64,000 nt of DNA, from assembly GCA_036172245.1 (NCBI GenBank), contig JAYWIR010000017.1, forward strand, positions 2,604,001-2,668,000, written 5' to 3'. The position numbers were made by a program, and so were the translations under genes. Each line of letters begins with the position of its first letter. Position 1 is the first letter of the stretch. Below are positions 11,661 to 64,000 of this stretch, piece after piece. The stretch comes from Raillietiella orientalis. Taxonomy: Eukaryota. The notes beneath the pieces were generated by a model, which saw only the letters and a program-made list of their open reading frames with translations, was not told the origin of the DNA and ran no database searches.

Positions 11661-11874
11661 GTGAATAACTCGAGGCGACCACGGCAACCCCTGACGCGCG
11701 GCGCCTCTCTCGTCTCCTCGCGCCCCCTCTCTCTCCTCGGAGAAGAAAAATCTCCTCCGGACGCTCCCATCCTCCTTTCCTGCGATCATACGGCCCTCGT
11801 GGCTGCCCGCTCTCACCCACGGGAGTGCGTGTGCGTGTGCGACGCGCTGGAAGATCTCGCGTGGATGGGACAGG
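11661..11874 (+). repeat. 214-bp direct repeat, copy 1
   Basis: Identical by eye to 14428-14641 (GTGAATAACTCGAGG...GTGGATGGGACAGG). Confidence 0.95.
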
Positions 11875-14427: not shown

Positions 14428-14641
14428 GTGAATAACTCGAGGCGACCACGGCAACCCCTGACGCGCGGCGCCTCTCTCGTCTCCTCGCGCCCCCTCTCTC
14501 TCCTCGGAGAAGAAAAATCTCCTCCGGACGCTCCCATCCTCCTTTCCTGCGATCATACGGCCCTCGTGGCTGCCCGCTCTCACCCACGGGAGTGCGTGTG
14601 CGTGTGCGACGCGCTGGAAGATCTCGCGTGGATGGGACAGG
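14428..14641 (+). repeat. 214-bp direct repeat, copy 2
   Basis: Identical by eye to 11661-11874. Confidence 0.95.
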
Positions 14642-17329: not shown

Positions 17330-17995
17330 TTAGCGGACTCCGGGGCCGAAGGGAAGGTCCTCGGGGCCCAGAACCATCACCTCCACCACGCGGTTGGCCT
17401 TGTCCGGGACGAGGTTCAGCTGCGGTGGCTGGTCCAGGAAACGGTGGACGCGGGGCGCCTCGGCGCTGCCGCAGGGCTCCTCCGCCGCCCGGGATAGGCC
17501 GCGGGCGCCCGGGTGGCGGGTAGGAGGCGCCCTCGAAGGGATACACGCGCAGGAGGAAGAGGGGCTGAAGCTCCGCGGCTCCTCCTCCTCTGCGGGGTCC
17601 GCGCGATCCGGATGCTGCGGGCGACCGCCCTGCAGCATGGCCGCCAGCGTCGCGATGTACCTCATCGCCATGCGCAGGGTCGTGATCTTGGTGACCTTGC
17701 AGTCGTCCCCCGAGGAGGCAGGAGGCGCCGGGACGCCCGGGATCATCAGGCGCAGCGCCTCGAACGCCCGGTTGATCTCCAGCATCCGCCGCCGCTCCCG
17801 CGCGTTCGCCGACTTCCGCCGGTACTTGCTGAGGGCGGGGGCTTTGGGGCGGGGCCTCCCCGCGCGGGAGCCGCTCTCCCGCGGCTCCGAGGAGGGTCGG
17901 GTCCGGCCCGGGCGCGGGCGCAGCTCGTATTTGCCTCCCCCGGCGCCGCAGTGCTCGCGGGGCGGGTCGCGGGCGGGCTGCTCGACGTCCGCCAT
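17330..17995 (-). CDS. dei: Delilah/Taxi-family (atonal superfamily) bHLH transcription factor, 221 aa, apparently a single coding exon
   Basis: Intact ORF with basic-helix1 LSKYRRKSANARERRRMLEINRAFEALRLMIP and helix2 KVTKITTLRMAMRYIATLAAML (about aa 55-120). The SKYRRKxANARER and KxTKITTLRxAM signatures are those of the Delilah/Taxi family. Start context is gcaATGG, and there is an in-frame stop at about 18280 with no intervening ATG. The C-terminus is unverified. Confidence 0.88.
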   Translation of the reverse strand: MADVEQPARDPPREHCGAGGGKYELRPRPGRTRPSSEPRESGSRAGRPRPKAPALSKYRRKSANARERRRMLEINRAFEALRLMIPGVPAPPASSGDDCKVTKITTLRMAMRYIATLAAMLQGGRPQHPDRADPAEEEEPRSFSPSSSCACIPSRAPPTRHPGARGLSRAAEEPCGSAEAPRVHRFLDQPPQLNLVPDKANRVVEVMVLGPEDLPFGPGVR

Positions 17996-18099
17996 TGCCG
18001 TCTGCGACGCTGCTGCTGCTGCTGTGTCTGCTGCATCTGCTGCTCCTGGCGGCGGGGACGGTGGGGGAGGAGGGAGGGGGCCGGCGGCCCACTCCGCTC

Positions 18100-18275
18100 T
18101 GAAAGAGGCGCGCCGTGGGTGGAGGGCCGGAAGCCTCCGGGGGTTGCCCGCCCGTCCTCCCGCCCCCTCTTGGTGGGGGGAAGGAGCGGCCGAGCGTCGC
18201 GAACCCCCGCGCGGATCGGCGCCCGGAAGCCCGCCGGAAGGGCCTCCGGGAAGACAAGAAGGCCAAAGGGCTTAC
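18100..18275 (-). other. Putative 5'UTR intron of the bHLH gene
   Basis: Minus-strand donor AG|GTAAG at about 18275 and acceptor ctctttCAG| ending at about 18100. An in-frame TGA lies just before the donor, so the upstream exon would be non-coding. Prediction only. Confidence 0.35.
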
Positions 18276-19699
18276 CTCTCAAGAGAAGGAGGGGGAGGCG
18301 TCGCCAGGAGCTCGCGCTCCCGCGTGCCCCATGGGGCCGCGGGCGCCTTCCTCGCCGAAAGACCTCCTACCGTGCTGCGCCTTCCGGCGGAGGGGTCGCT
18401 GCTGCTGCTGCTGCTGAAGCGCCGCTAAACGTCATGAGCCACTCGGGGGGTCCGCGGGGGGGAGCTCCGATCCCGGGGCGTCTTCTCCGGGGTAGAGGGA
18501 GGGAGGACAGGGGGAGGCGCTTCCTCTTTCCTTCTTCCTCCCTAGGCAGTCCACTCCACTCGCATCCTTCGCGCACGAGCGCGTGGACCGAGACGGGCGG
18601 GTGGGCGGTCGTCGAGCGGGCGAGGACGGCCGGCGCGGGATTGCGGCCTTCGCGCGCGGCCGCGGCCGCCTTATGGACTGCGGGCGCCCCGGGCGAGAGT
18701 GACCGCCGCCGCTGCCATTGAGCGGCATCCCCTCCTCCTCCTCCTCTTCCTACCAATTTTTCATCACACGCGCGCGCGCATGGACCGCGTCTTCTCCTCC
18801 TCCTCCTTTTCCTCCTCCCCCACGTTTTTTCCTTTCTCCCCTTCCCTCGCCTCACCCGTCCTCGGAGGGGGAGGCGAGGGGAAGAAGGAAAGTGGTCAGC
18901 CCTCTTCGAGACTGCCTCCTCCCTTTCCTCCTCCCTCCTCAGCAGCGCTTCCGTGCCTCAGGAGAGCGGGGCCTCGTTTGGAGCTCCCAGGGTCCATCAA
19001 GGAGGAGACAGGGAGACGAGGAGGGATGAGGAGAAAACCTTCCTTCCTTTTTCTTTCTTTCCTTTCGTCCCTACCCTTTTTCTTGCCTCCTCTTCACCCC
19101 GCCCGCCCTACCCTCTCCCGCACCTCCCGACGGAAGCGCGCAGGGCACTCAGCCCCTTCCCTCCCGCTCCGTGACTTCTCGGGAATCCCGGAGGGCAAGC
19201 GTGTCTCGTGCCATGGGCTCTGAGCTCGCTGCCTGGCGCGCGCGAGAGCCGCCGCCGCCGCCGAGGGTAGCGGTGGGAGGCCGTGGGAATCCCAGAGACG
19301 GAAAGGCGACCCCTTTCGCCCACCGCGCGAGGCGGACGCGCGTCCAGCAGTTACGGGCAGGACGTGCCGCCGCCACTGAAAGGGCCGACACTACCCTGGA
19401 TGATGGCTGACAGGGTGGCCATCCCCAGGGTGATGGTCAAATCCCCCGAGGAGGAAGAGGGGGATCGTTGTGAAGGCAACCGTCCCCCTTTTCCTTCACT
19501 TCGGGGCGCCCGGGACGCTGACCCGGAAGGACACGGGAAGCCGAGGGAGCACCTCGGAAGCTCCTGGCGTCTCGGGAGGAAAATGGCAGCGTTAGGGCAC
19601 CCACCGTCTTCCTACGCGCTCCCTGGACAACGAGACATCTTGCTTCTTCCGTGACTTCATCCTCTAGCATGGGTCCGCGCGGACTACCAGCCGGTCCAC

Positions 19700-30172: not shown

Positions 30173-30850
30173 TTTATCACCCGATCACACCGGAACTTTT
30201 ATTATAAAAATAAAAAACTTACATATGTAGGGCCATCGGTCCTACATTGCCCGCAAAGGCTCGGAGCCTGCCGAGTAACCGGCACGCAGGTCGGCGAGGT
30301 TCGCCTTGGCAGAGGAGGGAGAGAGAGCGAACAAAAATAAAAATAAAACGAAAAAATATATACGAAAAATTGGGAGGGTTAGGGAAGGGATGACCAGGAG
30401 CTAGAGGGCGTCCTCTGCATCCTTTCCGGGATGCCGGCAAGTTCCCTCTGAGTAGGCCCCAGGTGGGGCCCCATCTACTTGCCGTCCTCAGTGGCTAGGT
30501 TCTTTGCGTTCACTCACACGCGGTGGGTTGCACGATGACGTCCAGCAGCGAGCGGCTGCTGTAGAAGGGAGTGATGCAGTCGCCGCCGCATCTCCGAACT
30601 CGCTTCGTTGTTCATGGCCCACGTGAGGACGGTTTCCTGCAGCCAGGCATTACCGTTCGTGGGCCGGCAGGAGATCCAGGTGCTCGTTCTGGTCAGCTTA
30701 GCCACTCGCCGGAGCTTTAGTCTCGATAGTGTGCCCCCCGAAGAACTGGCGGTCCCTTGTCTTTGCGTGGACACCTCCGTGTTCCCGCTAGTTTGGAAAC
30801 ATAGCTTCATCTGCCAGAAGTCGCTAGGGAGATCGCCACCATACACAGCC
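30173..30850 (-). mobile_element. L1/Tx1-like 3' end (ORF2 C-terminus, 3'UTR, terminal motif), subfamily 1
   Basis: ORF end ELAGIPERMQRTPSSSWSSLP*, T-rich UTR, AATAAA and terminal hairpin. Homologous to 51173-52380, 33796-34070 and 59590-59875. Confidence 0.7.
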
Positions 30851-30858
30851 TCTTTTAA

Positions 30859-32125
30859 CCTGTTAAGAGAGTTTGACGTGTATGTATGTACACGTTTTGC
30901 GAAGGCGCCACTTTGGTGCGTTTGACAGATATACACACCGTGTGAAAAAGGAAAAATTACCCTTTGCCATCAAAATACGAAATTTGAGCAAAAAGTTGGA
31001 ACCATCTCGTTTATTTTACTTATATTCTGATTGGGACTGCAATGTGCAAAATGTCCTTATTCATTTTTTTATCAAAACACTTTTGAAGTGCCAAGTAAAC
31101 AAAAAATTCTTCTTTTTCTTTTTACATAATTGAAGCTCTAATTGAGGAAAATGATTTTCCTCAATGAAGGCTTCAAATGATCAGTTTGGGCAAAAAGTGA
31201 TCCATGTAGGATTGAACGCAATTCCTGGTCAACAGTTGCAGTTCCCAGAAAACCAAGAAAGAAATGCTCACTTGGTTTGTATGAATTTCTGGATAAGAAA
31301 CCAATGTCCATAATTGTGAAAGGGACTAATTTGTATGCAGGGCAATATGTGGAAATTCATTCGTTGAAGAAACGATCAAGGACGAGAAATTGGAATCGGA
31401 CAAACAACACGGAGATGAAATGTTTCCATCTCAAGACTGATATTTGCAAGGGGTTGCCAGAAAGCCAAAACTTGAGCTGCATTCCTCTAAAAGAAAAGAC
31501 ATATCCACTCCTTTCTTTAGCAAAGTGATGTCCCACCACAGACTTTTGCTGCTTTGCAAATTGATTCGTTCCGAAGATGACCAGAACATGAATTGAAGGA
31601 GCAAAATTTCTAAAACTGAAACTGCTTGGAAGAATATTCGACATAATTGCAAAATTTTTGTATATTCCAGAACAAGGCATTTGTGATGACGAATCCTCGC
31701 TGTCATGGAAAGGGCGACCGTCTCGGAAGCAGTACGTACACCTTCTAAAAGGAGTCGTTTGGGAATGGGACTTCTTGTGCGAAGGTCAATCTGGATACGT
31801 TTGGAATTTCTGTGCATACATCGGCAAAAATACAGAACGAGGTCAAAATCATTCTCAGCTTAAGACAGCGACTCTCATCGTTCTTCAACTTTCTCATCAC
31901 CTGTTAGGCCATGAGAAGACAATTTCTTATGAGTCTTTTTTATTTTTCCCATGTATGAAGCTACAATAACGGAATTTTTATGCTCAATTTTTTTTTCTTT
32001 TTTTTTTTCATTGAAATTTACAATAGATACATTTTCTGTGCGTTTGACTTATATACACTTTTTCGCCAATTTCAAGTATGCACCCACGGGTAGACTTTGT
32101 TAAAAAAAACTACTTGCTTAACAGG
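30859..32125 (+). mobile_element. piggyBac-superfamily DNA transposon, internally deleted and non-autonomous
   Basis: TTAA(30855-30858)|CCTGTTAAG ... CTTAACAGG|TTAA(32126-32129) gives perfect terminal inverted repeats with a TTAA target duplication. A subterminal motif GCGTTTGACnnATATACAC occurs at about 30918 and 32040. A transposase remnant lies inside. Confidence 0.92.
31270..31969 (+). pseudogene. piggyBac (PGBD4-like) transposase pseudogene, N-terminal half
   Basis: Fragments YEFLDKKPMSIIVKGTNLYAGQY...SRTRNW..TNNTEMKCF and YIPEQGICDDESSLSWKGRPSRKQY...LCEGQSGYVWNFCAYIGK match the IVxxTNxYA and DES/WKGR/SGYVWNF motifs of piggyBac DDD transposases. Contains stops and frameshifts; the C-terminal half is absent. 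Confidence 0.9.
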
Positions 32126-33750: not shown

Positions 33751-33795
33751 GAGAAAGGAAGGGGGAGGAGAAAAAAAGGGGAGAGGAGGAGGATC

Positions 33796-35750
33796 TTCCG
33801 GTCACGCCGGGGCGTTTTCCGAAAGAGCAAATCAAATTACCACCTGTGGTGAGTGGGGCACGCAGTCCCACCATGCCCGAATCTACAAGAAATCTGCCGG
33901 GTTGCGGCGCACAGATCGGCGAGGCTCACCTCAGCAGCTGTGAGGAGGGACAAAACCAAAAAGAAAATGGAAAAATAAATAAATAAGGAGCACACTCTAA
34001 GGGGGCACGGAGAGGGGTCACTGTCTGCTGGAGGGCATCCTCGGCATCCTATCCAGGATGCCGGCAAGTTGTTGGCATCCTGGCCCAGTCGTTGCTGGAG
34101 GAGGCACGCGTGCGGCCATTCCTACTGACTGGGCAAACTGGTCCGCAGAGACGTGTATCCCAGACAAGGAATCGGGAACGGACGAAACTCCGGTGTCAAA
34201 CAAACGGAGGCTCTGGCTGAACTCCGGAGCGATTGTGGCTCCTTCTGTTTCTTGGAGAGGGAAAGGTCGCACGTTCCCTGTAGGTGGCGCGCGTCCTCCT
34301 TGCGCGTTCCTCTCGTCGTTCGTTTTTGTGGACCAGTTGGAAAATGTTTCTCAGAATGAGGCGGAAGATGGATGTGCATTTGTCAGAGCCCTGGTCCCAC
34401 GAGATTGTGTCCAAGAGATGTCCCTTCCAGCAATCCAACCTCTGTCTGGACTGTGGCGACTAAGGTTCTTCTTGGACGCCTTCAGAAGAGCCGCTTCTCT
34501 TTTCCCCGCCGACAGCTCGTGATCTGTGATGTCGGAGGGTGCTCCGCGCTTTCCACTCGCAGTCCCCAAGAGGTCGCAGACCGCTGCGGCACCTCTGAGC
34601 TGCCTTCGGGGCGTGGGAAGCTTCAGAGATGAGTGCCTTCCTCTGAGCGGGCCCAACCCGGAAGCAGCGCGGGTCCTGACGGCTCTCACCCGACCTTCTC
34701 CTTCCCGGCTCCTCCCCCGAAAGCGACATCTTCATGATCTCGCGTTCTTCAGCACGTCTCTCCACCGGGAAGGGCATCCAACAGCAGGGATGTCAACATG
34801 TCTTGCATCGCAGACTCCAGAAGTCGTCTGCCACCTCCGGAGTTCCCGCTGTCCAAGGCAGTGCGTCACAGCTGGACTAGGTCGCGCCCCCGGCCACTTT
34901 TCCAGCCGGAGAGCGCCTGCGCTTCTCAGACTTCCTCCTCAGCCGCGAATCCTGCCTCGTTCCTCTTCTGGTCCGTGGAAGCAGCAGCCTGGAGGAAGGA
35001 AGGGGATCGCGCACATGGGCAGTCTGGACGAAGAGCCCGCTTCTGCGCCAGGAAGAGGGACACCCCTTTCGGGAACATCAGGAAGGCCACCCACATTCGG
35101 TGGGAGGGTTGGCTGCCAGACACGACCCTCCGTGCCAAGGGTGAACCGGACTGAGAAGCACAACAGGGTAGTCATCCTTGACGACTGTTGCTCCCTTCAG
35201 GAGTACGGCGGCAGAGTTCAAGGAAAGGACCGACGGAGTGTCCGAGGCAGGAAGGCACCTGGGGACTAGAAGGACGAAACGCCTCGAGACATCTCTCCTC
35301 TTGTCCTCCCTGGTTTCGGCGTGAGCACTGGCTGCTGTCGGATCCCTGGGGTCACGAGATATCAGCCAACGTCCGTGACCTGAGGGAGTTGGGATTGCTT
35401 TGATACACGCCGATGGGACGCGGAGAATTGTTGACTCCCTTCGAGCGTTTGGTGCGGCAAGGACTCCTACTGGATCCGTCGACTCGGCCAGGCGAAGGAC
35501 CGGACCACCTTGCGAAGACGCCTGCAAGGCTGCATGTCCTCCCATTCGGGTCCGCTGGGGGCAGCGGCTTTTCCTCTCCCTCCTTCCTTCTCATGCAGAA
35601 GGGAACCTCGTGACCCACCTCTTTTTTTCCGGAGAAGGAGAAGGAAGAGACGAGCGCGCACGCCGGTCCCACCCCCATCGGAGTCCCCTCCGGAGAGAGG
35701 AGACTTCCGTCACCACCACCCCTTTCCCCCACGGGCGCGGTAGAAGCTCA
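33796..35750 (-). mobile_element. L1/Tx1-like relic (endonuclease fragment, C-terminus, 3'UTR, terminal motif), subfamily 1
   Basis: GERGGGDGSLL (endonuclease), SLKLPTPRRQL...CDLLG...DITDH (zf-RVT-like), ORF end LAGILDRMPRMPSSRQ*, T-rich UTR, terminal AAAACGCCCCGGCGTGACCGGAAGA. Confidence 0.62.
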
Positions 35751-40899: not shown

Positions 40900-43560
40900 T
40901 GGTTCGCAAAGGTCTACAAATGAACTCTAAATGAATGCCGGCGCCATCGGTCGAGAAGAGACTCTGTCGCAACTGTGCCCCAGGCCCACAGGGAAGTGAT
41001 ATCCCTCACACGCTGCCTCTGCACCATCCGACACCGTTGGCAACGCTCCTCTCCCCCCTTCTCCTCCAGCAGAGACCCTGATGCACCCTAGAGGATACAC
41101 CCTGGACATTACTGCAGCGGCACGGAACTTGCTCCTGCTGCAGCAATGCAAGGCGGGGCTGTGTTCCCGGAGGCTCCACAGCGGGAGCTGGCTGCTCATC
41201 GGGGTCTCGCCAGCAACATTAACCACGTGACGTCTCCACCAGGAAGAAAGCAGACCTGGACAGTTTCCCACACCTGGACAAGAGACCGGAGAAGAACGTC
41301 TTAAGGGTAGCAAAGAGACCGTGGCACTAGACTCAGTGCAGAACCTCGGCTCCACCGTCCTATCTATTTATCCCGTTTGCGACATCGCCTGCCTCGCGCC
41401 GCAGTCAAGTGGTTAGGCGGTTCCCCTTCCAAGTGCTATTGGGCTCAGATAGGGACCATCCCATGAGCGTATCATGAGCTCCTTCGAGAGGTTAGAGCGA
41501 CGAAGACGTCGTCACAAGGGTGAAGAGGTGGGAGGGACTTATTCATCCTGACAGGAGCCGCGGCCTCTCGCTCCCGGGGATTCTCGAGAGACTCGGGTGG
41601 GCATGCTCATCGGGAACTTCCAGGTCAATTCCGAATCATCTCAGGCGGCAGAGGGTGCTACGTGGAAATGAAGTTCCAAGAGCACGACTCCGAAGTCAAC
41701 AGGCAGGTTATCCAAAGGGAGCACAAGCCCCACACCCATCAGACTGAATATCTCGGACTGGAACGAGTTTCTCTTTAGACCGGGCGGCCTTCTCACCCTG
41801 AATCGCCCTCCTTGCTGTGCGCGTTTTTTCCCGACCTGAGCGTCGGCGTTCGCTGAGCCGCGCGCTCCCACGACACGTCAACGTCATGTTCATTGAATTT
41901 CAAGGAGCAGACGTTCCAGCTTGGCCATCTCCTTACCGACTGCAGGGACAATTCATTTCACAAGTACAATTTGTGCGGTTAGACCGGCGCTGACATCTGC
42001 CGGTCTCAAACGCAACTCGGGACGCAACCACCGAGCGAAGGGAGTCCCGCGAAAGACGACAAATAAATGGGAGATGGTGGGGAGAGGACCCGTGGCACCG
42101 CAAGCGATCCATAGGGGCCTTCGTTGGGCAGGGAAGGGAGAGGAGCGAGTCACGATGCGTCCACCGGTTTCGGGATGAGCCCCCTACCGCCACACATTCC
42201 CGATTGGGCCGCCTCGCTGCCCTCCATTTCGGCTGCCCGGCACCGCTCGCACGTGGCGGGGAATCGCTAGCGAGGAGGCGGTTGGCGACCATGGACATGC
42301 TGGCACATCCGCTCAAGCGGATCCTCTGGGTCAGCAGCATCGGGGAGCTCGGGTGCCCACGGGATGCTCCAGCCTTCCTCATTCCGAAAGCGCGTGCAGG
42401 CAGGGTTCCCAACACAGCCTGCAGCGGGTGTACGCTCCCCGAGGCGTCGCGGCGACCGCTCCTCGTTTCGGGGGAGCGCAAGTTGCGTCCCGCCATCAGG
42501 ATGGCAGTCCAATGGTGACAGAGGAACAGGACTGAGACCGGGATGTGGAAGCTTCGACGGGAAGCGCCGGGAAACTCCATCCATCTTTGCGGGTATCCTG
42601 ACCGTGGTCCTTGGGCGGGCTTCGTTCTCCAGCCGAGACGCTTCCCGCCGTGAGATGATGGGCTTGGCGATTCTCGCGCGGACCAGGAGGTCGTGCTGTT
42701 TCCATGACGAGGCCACCGTTTTGAAACGACGGTTTGCGGGAAGCTCCGAGCGCAGGAGCCATCATGACCTCTGTCCACCGCTCAAGCTATTGCTCCGTCC
42801 GTCGTCCAGCAGGCCTTTCCCCACAACCGTAAAGCCGCCTCCTCCCTCGTCGCCTCCGCAGCTTGCCGAGCAATCACGTGACCCGCATTCAAGAGCCGAG
42901 AATGCGCGAAAGCGCCTCCGCACTACGACAGCCACTGAATCCAGAGTCCCGTGGAGGCCGAGTGGCGCCATGGTTCCGTCCGGTCGCCTGTCCCCCTTTC
43001 TGGCGCACCAGTAAGTCCCCAGCATCCCGCGAGGAGAAAGCAGTCCTCGAGCAGAAGGCTATTCTCGCCATCTGGACCTCTCAGTCTACGGTTAGCGAGT
43101 ATTCGAGACGAAGGCGGAAACGCTCAGCGCATCTTCTGGAAAACCACGATGCTTTCTGAGATCAAAGGTGCTCAGGACGGCATGAAGATGGGGGGGAGGG
43201 AGGTCACGAGGGGCAGGGACGAGGAAGAAGGCACTCGGTGTGCAACCCTCCGGGATCGCTACGAGCAGGACGGAAATCTTTCGGACGCTCGAAACGTGAC
43301 GTCACGAGCGCGCCGAGCATGCGTTCCTGGACCACGCCAACCTTCGGTGGACAGGAAGATGAAATCCGTGGACTCCTTCGCACAGCCCCCCATCCGGCAG
43401 CTGACACCCTGACCAGAGTCCGACTCTTCCTCGCTGCGCGCGGCCGCTGAGATCTTCGCTACGAGCCAGCGTGCGGACGCCCGGGGAAGGTGGCTGCGGC
43501 TGCTACCTGCACGCGTCTGAGAAGCCACGCGACCCCAAGTGACCTGCCATGCCATGCCAC
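40900..43560 (-). mobile_element. L1/Tx1-like relic, ORF2 (endonuclease, RT, zinc finger; internally deleted)
   Basis: Endonuclease-like segment at about 43300-43560, SSPMLLTQRIRL...MVANRLL (~RPISLLNxDYKI...LANRL) at about 42270-42350, and a frameshifted CPG-x-ETV zinc finger at about 41260. Confidence 0.55.
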
Positions 43561-46899: not shown

Positions 46900-47935
46900 C
46901 TCGTTTTCACGCCCTGAGCTCAAGGAGCGAGGTCCCGAGTAAGGGAACAGGTAAGCAGGATTTTCAAGTGCCCTTGCCTGTGGCCTTCGTTTGCCTGATG
47001 CTCGCGCTTCTTGGCGCACCTGATTTGTCGTTAGCCACGAATTTTAAAGCAGGATTGCCCTGCTCACTGTTTTGAATCAATCCTATTTTCTGGCGGCTGA
47101 TTTTTTTCCTTTTTTCCTCATAGACGCACGAGGATGAACGTGCTGTGTGGGTGGCTGCTAGGTGACAAGGAAAAGTCCAGCTTCTTCGAAGCAAATGTGC
47201 TGCATTTTGAGGCGAAGTTATTCAGGTTCTGGCAGCGACACACTCGCGGAATGAGAACAGGCCTCTTCTTCTCGAACAGGACTGGAGAAACAGAATGAAG
47301 CGAAAAGGACTCTGCACTTGAGCGCCATCATCAATCAGGACCGGTTTCAGTCATCCATCCGTTCTGGAATGAGCACGCCGCCTCTTGGCGCTTCCTTCTG
47401 AACCCGCTGCCTCCGGCAGCAGACCGCAATCTTCCTGGGAGCCTCGAGTCCAGGGAGAGGCGGGCTCTGGAGCATGCTCGAGGAAGAACCCAACACCATG
47501 GGTTGCATCCGCGCCATCATCACGACCCGCCATGTGCTTGAGACGCAGATTGCAGCGAAGGTGGGTCACCCTGGCTGGCGGTCGCCGCCTGTTTGAGGAC
47601 GGCTACTAAGTGACCTCACCTGGAAGAAGGAGATCGCCGATTCTAGAAGGAAGGAGCGGCTGTCCATCCTTTCTTTATCATTTGTTGTCCCCTCCCATGC
47701 AATCCGGACTTTTCCGGTGTTTTTTTTCTTCTTTTTACAAGGAACCAGCGATACCAAAGACTTTTTTATTTATTTTTTTATTTTTTCTCCCATCCGTTCT
47801 GGACTTTTAGTGGCCGACTTTCGTGTCGGTGGATCCTCCACCTGAACTTCTTTTTGCCTTCCGTCGGGAGCAGCGCGCTTCCAACTAGTTTGTTCTTTTT
47901 GAGTAAACGCCCCGAGGCGACCGGATGATAAATTT
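46900..47935 (+). mobile_element. L1/Tx1-like 3' end, subfamily 2
   Basis: IFWRLIF-like segment and a decayed zinc finger at about 47240, then a T-rich UTR and TTCCAACTAGTTT...GTAAACGCCCCGAGGCGACCGGATGATAAA. Confidence 0.55.
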
Positions 47936-50799: not shown

Positions 50800-52480
50800 C
50801 CTCGTTGCTGCTAGTCTATCCGTGGGTCTCCTGCAGCCCTATAAACTGAAATGCATGGCGGCAGGAGGCTCTCGATAGCTGGACCACCACTTTGGAAGTG
50901 CGCCCAGAGGAACTGCGACCACTGCAGGGTCTCCTACCCAAACCTCCGGGAGATCTGCAAGAATCGACGGAGTAGTTAGCCGTCACACACCTCTCTGCAA
51001 CAATGTCTGCCCTCAGGGCAAGCAATGGCAGCACTCAACCGACGTGATGAGAGTTCTCCTGCAACATTTCAGGAGTCCGAAAACTGAACAGCTGCAAGAC
51101 GAGCGCGCTGGTGAACGCAGCAACATTTCGTTTCCGAGCAAAGAGACTCCTTCGGCGGAGTGACCCGCTTGGTTTATCATCCGGCGTGACCGGGTATGTT
51201 GTATGTTTATCATAAAAAACAAAAAACTTACATGTGTAGGGCCATCGACCCTACATTGTCCGAAAAGGCTCGGAGCCTGCCGAGTAACCGGCACGCGGGC
51301 CGGCGAGGTTCGCCTTGGCAGAGAAGGAGAAAGGGGAGAACAAAAATAAAAATAAAACGAAAAAATACATACAAAAAATTGGCAGGATTAGGGAAGGGAT
51401 CTCCAGGAGCTGGAGGGCGTCCACTGCATCCTTTCCGGGATGCTGGCAAGTTCCTTCTGAGTATGTCCCAGGTGGAGCCATCTACCTGCCGTCCTCAGGA
51501 AGCGCAGGACGAAGCAGATGCCGTCCCTGTCCTCCTCTCGCGTAGCTCCAGATTGCCGCAATCCCGCGAAGGCAGCAAGAAAGGGCTGCTGGGGATGCAG
51601 TAGGTGAGAGGGCATCGCGCAAGAGGCGCTCCATCACGTCCCTGGGATTGTCTGTCTGTGCACCAAGGACCGCTGCCTAACGCAACCACAGGGGCCGGAG
51701 GGCAACACAGTCTACAAGCAGGTGCGGGAGCTGGGATTGCCGCCCCTCTCACCTGCAACAGTTGGGGTCCGCAGCCTTCCGGGTTTAGTGAGACCGGCGG
51801 GCGTTGCATGGGAGACTCAGTGTAGCAGCAAAAGTGCCGACCCCTCCCATTTCAGGAGGAAGGCCCTGTTGTTCTTCAGCGCCGGAGGCCACTCGAGGTC
51901 TTCCTATAGGATTCTCAGCAGCTCATCTCAGCGCAATAGTCCCTTCGATGGGATACTTGGGGTCTCAGCGTCTGTGAGCTGGCCCGTAGTCCAACCACCT
52001 AATTCCTTTGCTATTACACCGATCTCACATCGGACCTCACATTTGGCCAGCTGGTTGCTGCCCAGGTGCTCTCTGAGGGAGGGCAAAGAACCTCCCTAGC
52101 CTCATCGACCGGCTAGGGAGGTTCTTTGCGTCCACGCACGCGCGGTAGAAGAGAGTGATGCAGTCGCTGCCGCATCTCTGGGCTCACTTCGCTGTTCTTG
52201 GCCAACGTGCGGATGGTTTCCGGCGACCAGGCACTACCGTTCATGGGCCGGCAGGAGATCCAGGTGCTCGTTCTGGTCAGCTTGGCCACTCGCTGGAGCT
52301 CCAGTCTGTATGCTCGTGTCCCCTGAAGAACTGGCGGTCCCTTTCCTTTGCGTGGACACCTCCGTGTTCCTCCTACATTGGAAACAGAATGTTCTGCTGC
52401 TTCTGCACAGATTCCAGTGCGACCAGCGCAGGCACCTGGTTTCCGGGAGAGTGGCATCTTTGAACTGTTCAAGGTGCGGG
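50800..52480 (-). mobile_element. L1/Tx1-like junction: ORF2 C-terminus, 3'UTR, terminal motif, then the start of the next element
   Basis: Homologous to 30080-30800 with an insertion of about 610 bp (~51498-52110). FIGLQETHG (endonuclease QETH) occurs downstream at about 50820-50845. Confidence 0.65.
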
Positions 52481-52699: not shown

Positions 52700-54560
52700 T
52701 TGCCGAAAGCGCCCGTCAGTCTTTCCCACTTATCGGCTCGTACAGAAAGCAAAAGAAAACGCTTTCCAGGACTCCGACATCGGATGATCGATGCAACCTG
52801 AAACTGAAAGGGAAGTGGCAGTGGACGGCGACACAGAGCCTGGCTCTTCTGCCGCGGTCAATTAGGGATCTTTGAAAGGAAGACGCCCGAAGCAGCTCGG
52901 ATTTCAGAGCGCAGCAGCAGCCGCGAGCCAGCATGGCCGCTCGGCAGCGTTACCGGCATGGCCAAAATCGAGTTTCCCTGATCGATCCCGGCTTCAGCGA
53001 GATCGATGGATCTTTCTCGAGAGATTCTTATCGCCCCAGACGCGATGCTGCGACTTGACCCTCCAAAAATTGGCGTTTTGCACGGCCGGTCGATGAGGGA
53101 ATCGAAGAGAGTGATGCGTGGTGTCCTGGGCCGCCTCGAGAACCGAGGAGTACGCGCTTCGATCTTCCGGTCCGCAAGGGAAACGATGGAGAAGAGAGGG
53201 TTCCCTGACCCGCCTGCTGCTGACTGGGTATGGGGTGGAGCAACTCTGGAGGATGCTCCGAAAACAATGCATGCAGATGGCCCCACCGGGTACATCTTAT
53301 GCCCCCCATCCTTCAAGATAACGCTGGTTGGCCCACTGGCTTTGGGTGTGGCACTAGTGAAATCCTGAAGCCCCCGGATACCCCGTTGACCTTCCGGGAT
53401 CGGAAGTCGACCCTTTGCGGTCATTCCTGGAATCAAGGAGCCACTTTCTTTCGGGACTAAAGAAGAACAGAAGAGTCCGGGAGACTACTGGTGACTTTCA
53501 CTCATTGATACAGGACGCGGTGAAGTCTCCGACCCTAGCCATCACACCCCTTGCCGCAGCGCTGTCTGCCCTCAGGGCGAGAGACGACCTAGCCAACCGG
53601 CGAGGTGGGAGTTTTCTTTCACCATCACGGGAAATACAGAACACCTCGGTGCCTGGAAGACGCGTGAGTTGGTGGATGCTGCCACTTCGCGTTCGGTGGC
53701 GAAGGGACTCCGTCGGTGGGGCGAACTTTTGAGTGTTGCTCCTGAAAAACTTGTAATCCCTCCCTATTGTGTGGACGGTTCGTTGTTCCCCCTCGCCTGG
53801 GAGCAGGCCGTACTGCCCTCCATCCACTGGGGATTCCAGTGTGACGAGCGGCGGCACCGAGTTTCCGGAGGGGTTGCATCCCCGAACTGTCGTGCCAGAT
53901 GCAGGTCGGCGGAGTCGATCCCGCCGCACCTGCTTTTGGACTGCGGTGCTCCCCTCCAAAAACTGCGGCGGAGGCTGGCAACAGCACTCCTGCACCAGGA
54001 AGACACCGCCCGAGAGTGCTGCGGCAGTTTTTCGCGCCGAGAGGCCTCTCGATGGGCGTTGTTACTGCAACCATAGGTTGCATCCGTGCCAGGCTCTAGA
54101 AACCACCCCGCAGAGAGGGGAGGTCACCAGGATGGCAGCCACCTACTACATCAGGAGGGCTGCAAGGTGGCCTCACCTGGAAAAGGAATCCAAGGAAGAG
54201 ATCACCGGCATCCACTGCCGATTAGATGGACGGTTTGGAACGGTGGACTTTGATGGATCCTTGTCTCCTTCCTCCCTTTATTCTTTGTTTCTTATCCCCG
54301 TCCGACTCCGTAACTTTCTTAGTGCTTTTTTTTTTTTATTCCGGTGAATACGGAGCGAAACCAAAGATCCCTGCCCCTTTCCCACCCATTTTGTTTGTTT
54401 TTGTTGTCCGCTTGTCCCTCCCCGTTCCGGACTCTCTGTTATCCCGGACTGCCTAACGGCAGACGCTCCCTTTTGTTTCTTGCTGTCTTCGGTTTGACAC
54501 TCTGTTCCCAACTGGTTTATTCTTAATAAAATAAATGCCCTGGCGTGATTGGGTGAAAAA
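52700..54560 (+). mobile_element. L1/Tx1-like relic (RT end, thumb, CCHC finger, 3'UTR), subfamily 2
   Basis: PPKIGVL (~KILGV), ILCPPS, SPNCRARCRSAESIPPHLLLDC (CCHC zf-RVT), T-rich UTR, TTCCCAACTGGTTT...AATAAATGCCCTGGCGTGATTGGGTGAAAAA. Confidence 0.7.
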
Positions 54561-58199: not shown

Positions 58200-58780
58200 G
58201 GAGAGACTCGCGAAAGCCTCCCTGCCTTGAGAAGCGCAAGGAATGACCCCCGAAATTCCAGAAATCTCGTTTCAAAGAGATTTCTGGGATTCTGCCAGTC
58301 TTACGCGGAAGGCGGAAGCATCTGCAACAGTGAAGTAACAGGACTTCAAGATGCCCGGAAGAACGTGGCGATAGGGATACACCAAGGCGTCTCCCGGATG
58401 ATTCCGGGAATGAGAGATTGAATTAGATGGGAAGTCTCCTGGCACCTTAAGATTCCTTCCCAGATCAAAAGGGAGCGAGGTTCACCAGAGCAGCAAAAAG
58501 AGCGAGTGTGAGGGAAAAAAGCATGCAGTCGACCACGTAAGCGAAGTTGGCTGACGCTGCTCAAGTGCCAAAGACTTCAGCCATGTTGCGGATGACTAAC
58601 GTCTGCTGATCAGTCACTGAGAAAATCGACTTTCCTCTGATCGACTCGACTCGATGAAAGTTTGCTCCGGGACTTCCGGTCAGTAAAGAAAACCCAAAGG
58701 TTCGTAGCGAATAGCCAGGAGGGTCCACGAAAGGAGGCAGAGCGTGGGCGGGGCACTCATGGGAAACCATTCTCTTGCTC
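58200..58780 (-). mobile_element. L1-like RT core fragment, inverted relative to its neighbours
   Basis: VSHECPAHALPPFV (~GVRQGCPLSPLLFV) at about 58730-58770. Confidence 0.4.
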
Positions 58781-58939: not shown

Positions 58940-59875
58940 CGTTTGAACGTCATGATTGATGACCTCCACGATCCTATTCAGTTGCTACAGAAGAGAACAC
59001 TCAGTGCTCCTCCAAGCCGACCAACTGCTCCGCTATCCTCCCTCGACGCAGCGCTGCCAGCTCACGGAAGATGCGACCCCAAGTGCCTCCCCACGATGAC
59101 TTTTGAGCTGGGGGCGAGCTGCTGGGTATTCCGGCGGAAGATCTGCAGTGGCTTCCAGCGCTTATGGACAGACACACCCTCCCATTAAAGTGGCAGGAGT
59201 CGGCGCTGCTGCTGCTGCCCGGGAGCCTTTCGTGTAACGCCCGGCGGCATCATTGGACGCGGATGTGTGTGGATCCCAACTGTGGCAGGTACGGAGGACG
59301 CGAATCCCTCCTGCACCTGCTAGTGGGCTGTGTTGCCTTCAACCCCTCTAGGAACGCTTTGCAGCGACCTTAGGAATTCCTGGCGGCAACTCTAGGCACT
59401 CTGAAACGCCTCTTCGCTAGGGACGCACTTCGGGCGTCTGCCTCGCTAACAGCCCTCTGCTGCCTACGCGGGATCGTCGTCGCTGTCTGGAGCCACGCAA
59501 GAAGAGGACCCAGCGATAGGAGTGCCATCCGACTCGCCGTCCGATTCATGAGGATGGCAGCAAGATGGACCCATTTGCACAGCAATATCCAGCAAAACCT
59601 CTCCGGCATCCTTCAAAGGATCCAGAGGACCGCCCCCAACAGACAATGATCCCTTCCCACATCCCCCCCAAGATTGTTTTATTTTTGTTTTGTTTCTTTT
59701 TCTTTTTGTTTGGCCCCTCCCCTCTGCTGCCGTGGTGGACCCCACCGGTCTGCGAACCGGTAACGCGGCAGGTTAGATCAAAAAGGAAGGGAGTGGACCA
59801 CTGGTCCAACCTTGGAAATTGTGAATGTTTATTTATTTTATAAATAAATGCCTCGGCGTACCTGGGTGAGGATAT
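58940..59875 (+). mobile_element. L1/Tx1-like 3' end, subfamily 1
   Basis: DPNCGRYGGRESLLHLLVGC (CCHC finger), ORF end LSGILQRIQRTAPNRQ*, T-rich UTR, AATAAATGCCTCGGCGTACCTGGGTGA. Confidence 0.72.
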
Positions 59876-59949: not shown

Positions 59950-60106
59950 ACGAACACCATTATGGTTGAGATTTCTCGGATCGACATCTCGTTTTCCCGG
60001 CCTGTGTCGATAGACCCTCCCCTTTCTTACTCGTATTCGGCGGTTGGGAACTTTGGTTCCTAACTGGTTTATGCAAATAAACGCCCCGGCGTGACCGGGC
60101 GAGAAA
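59950..60106 (+). mobile_element. Short L1/Tx1-like 3' end fragment, subfamily 2
   Basis: CTCCCCTTT...TTCCTAACTGGTTT...AATAAACGCCCCGGCGTGACCGGGCGAGAAA. Confidence 0.6.
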
Positions 60107-60109
60107 TTT

Positions 60110-62522
60110 CTCGGATCGCCGGCGAGGTGTCCTTGGAAAAAAATCGCCACGCGAGGGAAGGACGCGTTCCCTCCTTCAGCCGAAGCCCATGCCTCCCAAA
60201 GGCAAGGATCCTCTTCCGCTCAAAGCGCTACCGTGCCTTCCCCTTTCGGGAAGCCTTGCCAATCTCTCCCTTCTCCCTTTCTTACGATGCACCTGTGAAG
60301 CGTACTCGTTGTCGAGCGGTGCACAGTTGTGTGGGGGGGGACATGCCCCCCACAACTGTGCTCCTGACCTTACCTATTCGGAGTCCTTTCGCTGAGTTAC
60401 CTTTCCGTGTTGCCATCACGCGTCGACGAGATCCTCGGGAAATTTCTGCGGCGCAGATTCGTGACCCCTCGGAGAAGTCACGAAATCCAATTAAGACCTT
60501 CGGTGTTTGTGCAGCTCAAAGTGCCTCAGCGAAAACATCCGGCGTGATGTCATGGCGGCGGATGACAGCATTGCTGGAAAGGGCTCCGGATCGTTCTTCC
60601 TTCCCTCCGTTTCCTTTCTTTTTTTCTCTTCTTTTCGTCTCAGGCCCTGACCGATCTACCAGTCCCTTCAGACCTCCTAACGAGCGTAGGATGACGCTTT
60701 GCCCCGCGCCAAACCACTCGTCACTCACTACGAAACGGACCCAGAAAAGCAAAAAAAAAATGGAAGGGGCAGATCAGACCTTGAGGGTTTCTTTCCGCCC
60801 AGTACCACTCAGCTAGTGGTACTTCGCGGAGCGAACCGGGATTGGTGTCACGTCTCCGGAAATCCTTCACAAAACTTGGCTACTGTACGCATGCTACAGC
60901 CACTCTATAAGTCGGATCTGTCGAACGGTGGTGCAGAATGGATGCGGCCGACATTCGGTGCCGGTTGGATTGCAGCAGAGAGGCTAGAGATGTCCCGGTG
61001 AGGACGCCCTTGCGATTCCCCTGAGCATCGCCACGAGCGTCCCGGGAAAACTCCGCCCGCGAGCACTTGAACCACGCTGGATGGTTTGCTCCCTACGGAG
61101 TTCTCCTCCACATCTAGACCCCAGCATCCCCCCGGAGGAGTTGCCACCTTCGCTAAGAATCGCGTCAGTGAAGGCACCGTCGTTCCAGCTCGCGCCAAAG
61201 TCCTTCCCTGAGCGCATCCACAGGACCATTGCACTTTCCCTGATCTGGGTGCAGATCCTGCCATCGTGCGATGCAGAAAACGTCGGAAGACGGAAACGCC
61301 TTCGTCCCAGTCGTCGGGTGCGAGCTGGATGCTCGAGAGCCAGCGGCGAGAGCACGCACCTAACATTCCGACCCTCTTCAAGATGAGTCAGGTCACAACG
61401 AGAGCGACTCCGCGCCGAGCTTCCCTTGTGTGCTGCCCGGGATGCTCTCTTTCCGCCCGTGCTCCTGCTGATGTGGTCCATCACGGGAGGAGCAGCCGAC
61501 AGCCGAGGGAGTCATGTCTTGTTTCTCGGTGTGACTCTCCAGGTGCCCTTGACAGTCTGTCGCGGCGCTGCTCCTCACTTCTGGAGCCGACCGCCGACCT
61601 CCTCTCTGTTTCCCGTCTGATGCCCTTCCGGAGGGGAGATTAACACGTTGGCCGAGGGTGAACTCGGGGTCCGCATAGGCGCGGCAAGGCGGCTGGAGAC
61701 CCAACGGAAGCCGACGGAGCGCAAGGGCCTCCTCCACCTGGGATGTGCGCCGATCAGGGATTGCCGCGCCTTTCTCCGTCGTGTGGCGCGAGAACCGGAG
61801 ACGACCTTTCGTCCCATGCTGTGACAGAAAGTCTCCTGCGGTTTCCCCTGGAGCTTGGCCATCCTGAAAACGCTTCTCTTCTTGAGGCGGTTTGTTTGCT
61901 TGTTGACCCGTTCACTACGGCACGCGCTTTCGGAATGCGGAAGGCTGGAGCATCCCGTGGGCACCCGAGCTCCCCGATGCTGCTGACCCAGAGGATCCGC
62001 TTGAGCGGATGTGCCAGCATGTCCATGGTCGCCACCCGCCTCCTCGCTAGCGATTCCCCGCCACGTGCGAGCGGTGCCGGGCAGACGAAATGGAGGGCAG
62101 CGAGGCGACCCAATCGGGAATGTGGGGTGGTAGGGGACTCACCCCGACACCGGTGGACTCATCGTGACTCGCTCCTCTCCCTTCCCTGCCCAACGAAGGC
62201 TCCCACGAATCGCTTGCAGTGCCATGGGTCCGCTCCCCACCATCTCCCATTTATTTGTCGTCTCTTGCGGGACTCTCCCTTCACTCGGTGGTTTTGCGTC
62301 CCGAGCGAGGGCAGTTACGTTTGAGGCCGGCAGATGTCAGCGCCGGTCTAACCGCACAAATTGTACTTGTGAAATAAATTGTCCAGGCAGTCGGTGATGA
62401 GATGGCCACTCTGGGACGTCTGCCCCTTGAAATTCGATGAACATGACGTTGACGTGTCGTGGGAGCGCGCGGCTCAGCGAACGCCGACGCTCAGGTCGGG
62501 GAAAAACGCGCACAGCAAGGAG
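60110..62522 (+). mobile_element. L1/Tx1-like relic (5' region, endonuclease, RT N-terminus)
   Basis: Endonuclease-like segment at about 60800-61340 ending GASWMLE (~GxWKLN). RT start SSPMLLTQRIRL...MVATRLL. 61920-62522 is an inverted copy of 41808-42397. Confidence 0.55.
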
Positions 62523-64000
62523 CGGTTAAGGGGACAGTGGAGAGGATAAAAATGAAAGAAATATGGGATGCTGTGAGGAATTGGTTTTACCTCGCTGCGT
62601 GCCATGGCACTGCACAGAAGGTAGAGCGCAGCTTGAGGGTTTTCAAAGCGAATGAAAAAGAAAAATTCGCAGTGGATCCTGGAACGAATGGGCCTGGAAA
62701 AAAAGCAGGTTGGGTTTCCCTCTACAAGATTGGAGATGCTGTTTTAAACTTATGGCTAAGAGCTCACATGACTTTTCCATGAGGGGATCGGTTTAAACAC
62801 ATGTAAGGCCTTTGAATCCGAATGTTAATTATGGCTGTCCTTTTCTTTTCCAAAGTGTTTCAGTGTTCCCGCAAACAAGGTTCACCTTAGAAACGCGTTG
62901 GAGCTCTTCGTGCGCAGCGCAACTCCGCCTGCTGTGGAGATCGCCACCATCCGCTGCTTCCGCAGCGCAGGCATGGCACTAAGCTCAGCCAGAAGGATGC
63001 AGCGCCACAATGACCTCTTTCTTGAGGGGAAGATGGTCCGCCCTCTTGGAACTAGAAAGCGTGGAACTTGCCAGTATCCAGTACAGGATGCAGAAGAGCC
63101 CAGGGGATCGCCGGTAACCCCTCCCCTTCCTCTTGGTCCCTTCCCAAAGTGAGAAGTTATGCACGAGCGTTTTCCTTTTTTATTTCTTGATCTGACACTC
63201 CTTCCTTTCCTTCTCCGAGGTGATGGTCTCCCACTGACAGATCAGCTGGCTTCCTTCCAGCTCATCCGGAATTCTCCTGGTTCGGAAGGACCCAGCAGCA
63301 TCCCAACCTGCGTTCTTTTGTTTCCTCATGTCCCCGTCGTTAGGAGCTGCAACAAACTCTGAGGCGGGATCTGCCGCTGCAACAAGACCCCTCTGCGTAT
63401 TTTGTGAGGACCGGAGTGTGCGGAAGATGACTGGCAGCTACCACGAATGGATGCGAACAAAGGGAGCCATCAGAGCGGCGTTCGGATTTTTTTCTCTTTG
63501 TGCTCATGAAGAGAGAAAAGTTTCCCTTGAAAGTCTGGAAAGCCTTCCCTTCTAGATTCCCGTTCGGCTTCCTGCGGAGAATGAGGAAGGGATGAAAAAC
63601 TGCGGGTCGAAGCAGCAGCCGCAGTGCTTGCATCTTCCTCGAGGGCCTCCTTGCGCGTCTGCGGCGTAGGGCAGCTGACCCATCACGGCGAAAGGATCAA
63701 GCAAACGCAGGCCACGAGCGATCCCTCCCGGAGAAATCCTTGACAGCATTCTCGTCACAATCTTCCCATTGTTCCCGGCTGCTAGGTTTTGCTGATGCCG
63801 TTCCGTGATTCTCGAAGCTTTCTCTGGAGGCCCCTTGCTTGATTCCACCCGATCGTTGCCGAGCGGCGCTCGGGGCGCGAGAACAGGAGGAAACTCCCCG
63901 ATCTCCTAGCAACCCGAATTTGCCCGATTCCCCTACAGGGCTACGAGGGATTGCTGCCGGCCGGTCCAGATCCTGCCCCACTTGATCTGCTTTTCCGCCC

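Follow-up and report, generated by a model that had tools for sequence, protein, structure and literature searches.

We read the stretch at 59604-59810 (plus strand), flagged by an earlier note, as the 3' tail of a LINE-like retroposon in an animal genome, 5'-truncated, poly(A)-less and of the stringent type, whose RNA would be recognised by its reverse transcriptase (RT), a reading drawn by analogy with known LINEs that we hold to have about an even chance of being right. Observed in the window (the whole stretch of 64,000 nt that was analysed) were a repeat family, a 3' end common to its tails, one insert with a target-site duplication at its flanks, and hairpins in which pairing was kept through changes on both sides of the helix. 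A retroposon tail with hairpins that conserve their pairing is a real feature and one of an ordinary kind.

Tail copies and their kinship

Four tail copies were recovered by a blastn self-comparison and an nhmmer profile, at 59500-59868 (plus strand), 30178-30535 (minus), 33795-34167 (minus) and 51187-51557 (minus), with E-values from 5e-106 to 3e-95. The structured parts of the three copies on the minus strand were placed as follows.

30180-30312, minus strand: copy c30, with the junction domain at 30267-30312, hairpin P4 at 30226-30246 and the terminal hairpin at 30180-30194
33797-33937, minus strand: copy c33, with the junction domain at 33893-33937, P4 at 33852-33872 and the terminal hairpin at 33797-33812
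51180-51321, minus strand: copy c51, with the junction domain at 51276-51321, P4 at 51235-51255 and the terminal hairpin at 51180-51194, its loop reversed

Copies were unequal in their 5' extent, which ranged from 119 nt to ~730 nt. The c30 and c51 copies shared 83.9% identity over 404 columns, and their similarity extended ~80 nt beyond the 3' end of the element into the flank, with a second block common to the two loci at 30558-30801 and 52142-52386. Because the flank is shared, these two are segmental duplicates, and the four copies counted in the earlier note, all of which are present in the sequence, represent only three independent lineages. The remaining pairs of copies were 66-71% identical (29-34% different).

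A covariance model of the junction domain (R1) was scanned across the window and found only these four copies, scoring 65.3 bits in the flagged copy, 73.1 in c30, 59.1 in c33 and 71.1 in c51; the runner-up match in the window reached 14.2 bits. The same model gave 12.8 bits for a partial, decayed copy at 58455-58493 (minus strand), and the decayed fragment at 58455-58520 (minus) retains CUGCUCUGGUGAACCUCGCU, the start of P1 plus P2 (see below), and then diverges. The pattern AAAYGCCCCGGCGTGACCGG was matched at 10 metagenome, 9 prokaryote-genome and 0 viral loci, and these are chance hits, since a profile search of those loci matched the motif alone.

A shared 3' terminus and an insert flanked by a target-site duplication

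Seven tails, namely the four copies and a second subfamily at 54112-54555, 47562-47927 and 59984-60102, ended in the same way across at least two subfamilies: AAUAAA or a near variant, 1-2 nt, the hairpin CCCGG-CGUGA-CCGGG, and then YGA. This terminal hairpin is the most widely shared element of the family and was absent from the earlier note. The features of the terminus outside the minus-strand copies are listed here.

59843-59848, plus strand: AATAAA, which precedes the terminal hairpin by 2 nt
59851-59869, plus strand: terminal hairpin CCUCGG-CGUA-CCUGGG plus TGA, the probable 3' end of the flagged element
54538-54553, plus strand: terminal hairpin of a second-subfamily tail, with three C-to-U changes, all kept as G.U
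47911-47925, plus strand: partly decayed terminal hairpin region in a further tail of the second subfamily
59984-60102, plus strand: 5'-truncated insert of the second subfamily, 119 nt, ending AAUAAA-C-GCCCCGG-CGUGA-CCGGGC-GA

RNAalifold found a 5-bp terminal hairpin de novo in the seven-tail alignment, where 87.8% of 49 cells were paired. Variation in this hairpin was almost all one-sided, with a single two-sided change, and its covariation showed no excess over shuffles (432/500); the terminal hairpin is conserved, not covarying. Its five core pairs comprised 24 Watson-Crick, 8 G.U and 3 A.C cells, and this surplus of G.U over A.C indicates that C-to-U changes were tolerated more on the sense strand, a modest lean towards sense.

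A target-site duplication of 16 nt (59968-59983 and 60103-60118, 94% identity), found by a repeat search and a script, bounds the insert at 59984-60102 and fixes the end of the element 3 nt past the hairpin. The 3' end of the flagged copy was placed by analogy, because this insert ends likewise. A 5'-truncated insert flanked by a target-site duplication is the signature of target-primed reverse transcription. With a duplication of its own, this neighbour of the flagged copy is an independent insert rather than a tandem unit. Target-site duplications were sought for all seven tails and found for this one, with none for the other six. We also observed that the target of this insert starts GAGA and the element ends CGA, a resemblance that may be microhomology at the priming site.

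The location of the AAUAAA fits another account, distinctly unlikely in our judgement, by which the constraint concerns how the transcript forms its 3' end, stays stable or is exported, and not how it binds the RT. Cleavage directed by AAUAAA would then fall shortly after the terminal hairpin, and the hairpins upstream would serve to protect the RNA or to mark it. In five of the seven tails (alignment A5) the hairpin was preceded, at 1-2 nt, by AATAAA or a variant differing in one letter, the element ends ~20 nt past AAUAAA, which is a usual cleavage distance, and A-rich flanks followed the YGA in 4/7 tails. However, no poly(A) tail was found on the genomic copies, and this account leaves unexplained an upstream domain that differs between subfamilies next to a terminal hairpin that stays constant.

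The loop of the 15-nt terminal hairpin was observed in opposite sense in the two segmental duplicates, as UGUGA in c30 (30180-30194, minus strand) and CGUGA in c51 (51180-51194, plus strand). An 11-nt indel adjoins this loop-flipped hairpin, and in both copies the hairpin lies at a tail-to-tail junction with an oppositely oriented second tail end (GCTTGGTTTATCA...). The flip resembles a small inversion occurring at a palindromic hairpin.

Pairing in the junction domain and P4

Upstream of the terminus, the flagged copy contains two further structured parts, given here with their helices.

59727-59772, plus strand: junction domain, the subject of alignment A3, of pair counts and energies, and of covariance model R1
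59727-59732 with 59766-59771, plus strand: P1, CUGCCG with CGGCAG
59734-59746, plus strand: P2, GGUGG-ACC-CCACC
59749-59751, 59756-59759 and 59766-59772, plus strand: bulged stem (c), mutually exclusive with P1
59791-59811, plus strand: P4, a hairpin with a 9-pair register and a 3-nt loop (alignment A4)

P4, hairpin (d) of the earlier note, has six contiguous pairs in the flagged copy (UGGACC/GGUCCA), and its 3' arm reaches 59811, one base past the end of the flagged stretch. Its pairing had been said to persist though the letters differ, and this was borne out: 31 of the 36 cells were paired (86.1%) and three of the nine pairs had changed on both sides, one position being A-U, G-C and U-A in different copies. 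The P4 stem columns were as variable as unpaired columns and still 86% paired, and 5-7 of 500 per-pair shuffles were as good as the observed alignment.

The junction domain contains P1, P2 and an inner arm. P2, which corresponds to hairpin (b), carries exactly the sequences that had been claimed, with all 20 cells paired; two of its five pairs differ on both sides, the first (U-A, U.G or C-G) with a U.G intermediate and the second reading G-C or A-U. The helix P1 (CUGCYR/YGGCAG) was paired in 22 of 24 cells, and the alternative CTGCYG/CGGCAG pairing proposed earlier is thus real. For stem (c), 25 of 27 cells were paired and one pair had changed on both sides; it is intact as originally written in c30 and c33 and mismatched in the other two copies, with a C.A mismatch in c51 and one U.G and one A.C in the flagged copy. 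Two sites, 54445-54458 (CUGCC-UAAC-GGCAG) and 47814-47829 (CCGAC/GUCGG), were considered as compensated P1 homologues and rejected, as MAFFT aligns them out of register.

Stem (c) had energies of -7.5 to -14.0 kcal/mol versus -17.1 to -21.4 kcal/mol for the minimum-energy folds, and was never the minimum-energy fold of any copy. P1 (CUGCC/GGCAG) closed the domain in the minimum-energy fold of three of the four copies. Together these energies point to a small junction closed by CUGCC/GGCAG as the preferred form. The conformational switch suggested in the earlier note finds no backing here, as stem (c) was never the minimum-energy fold and no evidence of switching was seen in the modelled structures. 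Per-pair shuffles matched the observed covariation in 55/500 trials for P1 plus P2 and in 33/500 for P2 plus stem (c). Column 23 of alignment A3 had two equally good pairing partners, columns 30 and 46, which means that the sample has little power, and the apparent support for both of two mutually exclusive helices, P1 and stem (c), likewise indicates that power is low.

We considered whether the domain could be a self-cleaving ribozyme that frees unit-length RNA from tandem or read-through transcripts, and we hold this to be extremely improbable. Another tail in the same orientation directly follows the flagged copy, and retroposons are known to carry ribozymes, such as the HDV-like ribozyme that the excerpted text of PMC3185411 describes at the 5' end of L1Tc. 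Yet the target-site duplication around the neighbouring tail marks it as a separate insertion, and the domain is set back 80-140 nt from the 3' end, away from any unit boundary. To our knowledge, the HDV-like ribozymes of retroposons are located at 5' ends. The Rfam scan gave 0 matches in the window at gathering score; at E<=10 it gave 1 chance match in the region and 27 in the window, among them no ribozyme family in any copy, so that the self-cleavage raised in the earlier note was not supported.

A broader proposal, very improbable in our estimate, joins several claims: that the junction domain and P4 would form a new class of processing RNA, self-cleaving or acting as a switch between the form closed by CUGCC/GGCAG and the bulged stem; that read-through 3' ends would thereby be defined or licensed; and that the palindromic terminal hairpin would let the RNA prime on either DNA strand. 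Such two-strand priming would account for the tail-to-tail junction and the flipped loop (30180 and 51180).

Statistical support and the folded strand

RNAalifold, which predicts its own structure, was compared with a null of columns shuffled within gap and conservation classes. The structure-anchored alignment gave a sense z of -3.0 (0/500 shuffles as good), and two MAFFT-only alignments gave -3.96 (0/300) and -2.92 (3/300); related sequences may beat such shuffles without structure, and the sequences here come from three independent lineages. Sliding the 3' partners by 1-3 columns lowered pairing from 86-96% to 20-57%, and all eight of the cells changed on both sides in P1, P2, stem (c) and P4 were still paired. 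Pairing was therefore better than in shuffled alignments (0-3 of 300-500 RNAalifold shuffles), the comparison on which the earlier note had staked its claim. With three lineages, this sequence comparison lends moderate rather than conclusive support to a structured tail.

The same data can be read as holding no selected fold, with common descent and chance G+C-rich hairpins, and chance "compensation" in three lineages, producing what we observed; we take this alternative seriously, unlikely as it is. Folded as single sequences and set against shuffles, the copies gave sense z of -0.29, -0.95, +0.50 and -2.53, three of the four being no better than shuffled, and 5-bp helices are expected about once per 100 nt at such composition (an estimate, not a computed value). 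The junction shuffles that matched observation (33-55/500) and the two equal partners of column 23 point the same way, as does a second-subfamily hairpin before AACTGG, which had one two-sided change and did not rise above shuffles (266/500). On the other side, the alifold result was matched by just 0-3 of 300-500 column shuffles, MAFFT-only alignments included, the two-sided changes without exception kept their pairing, and the P4 stem varied as freely as unpaired columns while staying paired.

Antisense alignments folded more strongly than sense ones (z of -5.2, -5.31 and -4.43), and the core helices held 5 G.U cells in sense orientation versus 7 A.C cells. The sense strand, taken in the earlier note to be the folded molecule, is not favoured by these figures from the core. 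They speak for a further alternative, quite improbable in our view, by which the pairing is important at the level of DNA, of the antisense strand or of first-strand cDNA, or reflects templated quasi-palindrome correction during copying. The flipped terminal loop of c30 and c51 also counts towards it, as it implies that DNA-level hairpin events do occur here. Counted per helix, however, the strands were near-equal (98 versus 100 of 107 cells), the terminal hairpin leans towards sense (8 G.U versus 3 A.C), and the open frame, the AAUAAA and the target-site duplication mark the sense RNA as the molecule that was copied. Within the retroposon reading, we infer that it is the sense RNA that folds. 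The selected cis-acting RNA proposed in the earlier note stands in part: a retroposon tail with pairing kept above shuffles was found, and the self-cleaving function was left unsupported by Rfam.

Open frame, stem (a) and coding domains

The 5' part of the flagged copy contains the end of a decayed frame and an unstructured tract.

59605-59623, plus strand: stem (a), GGCATCC-N6-GGATCC, within the last ~15 codons of the decayed frame
59647-59649, plus strand: TGA stop of the ORF-like frame 59107-59649
59650-59726, plus strand: pyrimidine-/U-rich tract with no structure (alifold energy 0.0 on both strands, like shuffles)

A search for GGCATCC-N6-GGATGC with at most 2 mismatches gave 12 matches, which are 6 palindromic sites counted on two strands and include all four copies; shuffled sequences gave 2.4 +/- 1.8 matches and reached 12 in 0/100 cases. 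The 3' arm in the flagged copy is GGATCC, which produces one C.C mismatch. Alifold of the block at the end of the open frame gave z of -2.19 in sense (10/300) and -3.49 in antisense. Stem (a) is thus found in every copy, as had been reported, but it lies inside the open frame and shows no two-sided change, which makes it inseparable from coding conservation.

A fifth, more distant tail was observed at 63003-63330 (plus strand; nhmmer E 6.7e-12). Stem (a) is retained there with U.G replacing C-G, and past its U-rich tract this tail has other hairpins, such as CAGCUGG-N7-CCAGCUG. The terminal hairpin was looked for in this tail and not found.

The frame 59107-59649 contains one internal TAG and, upstream of its stop, a C..C...H....C-like (CCHC-like) motif, which we take to resemble the ends of LINE ORF2 proteins. 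The label "ORF2" used in the earlier note was not borne out by the search for an RT or endonuclease domain in frames and upstream DNA. No Pfam domain of either kind was found in 280 of the 337 open frames of at least 90 aa (the 57 left out being of 90-109 aa), no relevant family for the ORF tail was found in Pfam scans of 9, 146, 134 and 4 frames, and 0 Pfam families were matched by the upstream 3 kb of two copies, read in three frames through stops. A regular expression for the RT catalytic motif found 3 sites, 0 of them with an RT-like context. For the ORF tail itself, a word-index search for longer proteins returned nothing, phmmer returned 3 matches to Myb-repeat or repetitive proteins and 0 that were LINE-like, ESM Atlas gave no usable match, and the PDB gave one chance match (E 0.13). 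The absence of an RT is expected because the copies are short 5'-truncated tails. The element would nevertheless be a LINE on our reading, although no RT domain was found in the frames scanned.

Other features of the window

Between 30 and 64 kb, the window consists of a mosaic of decayed repeats. Two of the tail copies have between them a piggyBac-type transposase remnant (31592-31966, plus strand; DDE_Tnp_1_7, E 2.2e-9), and an inverted repeat of ~610 bp belonging to another repeat family (41796-42397 and 61920-62532, 91.9% identity) has its arms 20 kb apart. ARAGORN found 0 tRNA-like heads. A bHLH gene was observed at 17333-18271 (minus strand; Pfam HLH, E 1.6e-17) as an open frame in a block of 65-70% G+C; 34 proteins matched it at E<=1e-5, and its closest named relatives are arthropod delilah-like proteins, with ~50% identity across a third of the query. 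These relatives point to an animal host, probably an invertebrate. A G+C-rich block also holds a direct repeat of 214 bp with 100% identity (11661-11874 and 14428-14641). On both strands, weak matches to microRNA precursors (E 0.7-9, far under gathering scores) were numerous in the G+C-rich palindrome at 18820-18940, which is probably a simple inverted repeat.

Proposed organisation and role of the tail

Read 5' to 3', the tail RNA would consist of the end of a decayed frame, an unstructured U/C-rich tract and a subfamily-specific G+C-rich domain, in which the CUGCC/GGCAG helix is predicted to close a small junction that contains a variable arm and P2, a triloop hairpin of 5 bp. Downstream of the junction would come the P4 triloop hairpin of 6-9 bp, an A/U-rich stretch with AAUAAA, the family-wide terminal hairpin, and YGA. 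By analogy with stringent-type LINEs, the terminal hairpin may be the family-wide handle by which the RT recognises its own RNA, and the junction and P4 would probably act as subfamily-specific determinants on the same recognition surface. The RT would then begin target-primed reverse transcription at the YGA end.

If this reading is correct, an unclassified invertebrate retroposon family gains a defined two-part recognition module, composed of a terminal hairpin common to all subfamilies and an upstream hairpin cluster that varies between them. It would also offer a natural system for studying how a LINE enzyme separates its own RNA from those of sister subfamilies, and the AAUAAA-hairpin-YGA arrangement would be a practical annotation signature for many short 5'-truncated copies. 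Current understanding of the mobility of such elements would stay unchanged.

Comparison with known systems

HDV-like and hammerhead ribozymes of retroelements are likewise structured RNAs on retroposons. The tails here differ from them in having no match to their models at E<=10, a domain in the wrong position within the element, and no unit boundary at that domain.

The excerpted text of PMC11194090 reports that the R2 protein binds its own structured 3' UTR, with an affinity that hinges on two stem-loops, and the tails here resemble that 3' UTR in being multi-helix. R2 inserts at a single site in 28S rDNA, whereas the present tails lie in differing flanks and have no Rfam match; no rRNA match was found in the window at the Rfam gathering score.

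Tails of the UnaL2/ZfL2 type have short tandem repeats at the extreme 3' end. Unlike them, the tails here end in YGA without such repeats and have an extra multi-hairpin domain, 40-140 nt upstream, that differs between subfamilies. No LINE 3'-element family of Rfam matched at E<=10 in the region or the window. The L2-clade LINEs (eel UnaL2, zebrafish ZfL2-1 and ZfL2-2) likewise have a family-wide hairpin at a poly(A)-less 3' extremity. In the portion of PMC1636434 consulted, the UnaL2 tail hairpin is required for mobilisation, and the stem at 60082-60101 can be extended with a single bulged C in the manner of that hairpin, a likeness that is one of resemblance only.

According to excerpts from PMC4316615, the CR1 3' UTR has a hairpin conserved across subfamilies, together with severe 5' truncation of the elements, and RT recognition has been suggested. 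The present tails share with CR1 both the hairpin conserved across subfamilies and the severe 5' truncation, as far as those excerpts (PMC4316615) describe them. The CR1 hairpin precedes an octamer microsatellite, whereas the tails here have no microsatellite and end in YGA 3 nt past the hairpin.

The LINE hallmarks seen in this family are a common 3' end in seven tails, variable 5' truncation and a target-site duplication in one of the seven. As stated in the excerpted text of PMC4176376, the ORF2 protein of a stringent-type LINE binds the stem-loop in the 3' tail of its own element, and the recognition by a cognate ORF2 protein that we propose here is modelled on that system (PMC4176376). 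As in the stringent type, a conserved stem-loop stands at the 3' terminus of these tails, 3 nt from the end of the element.
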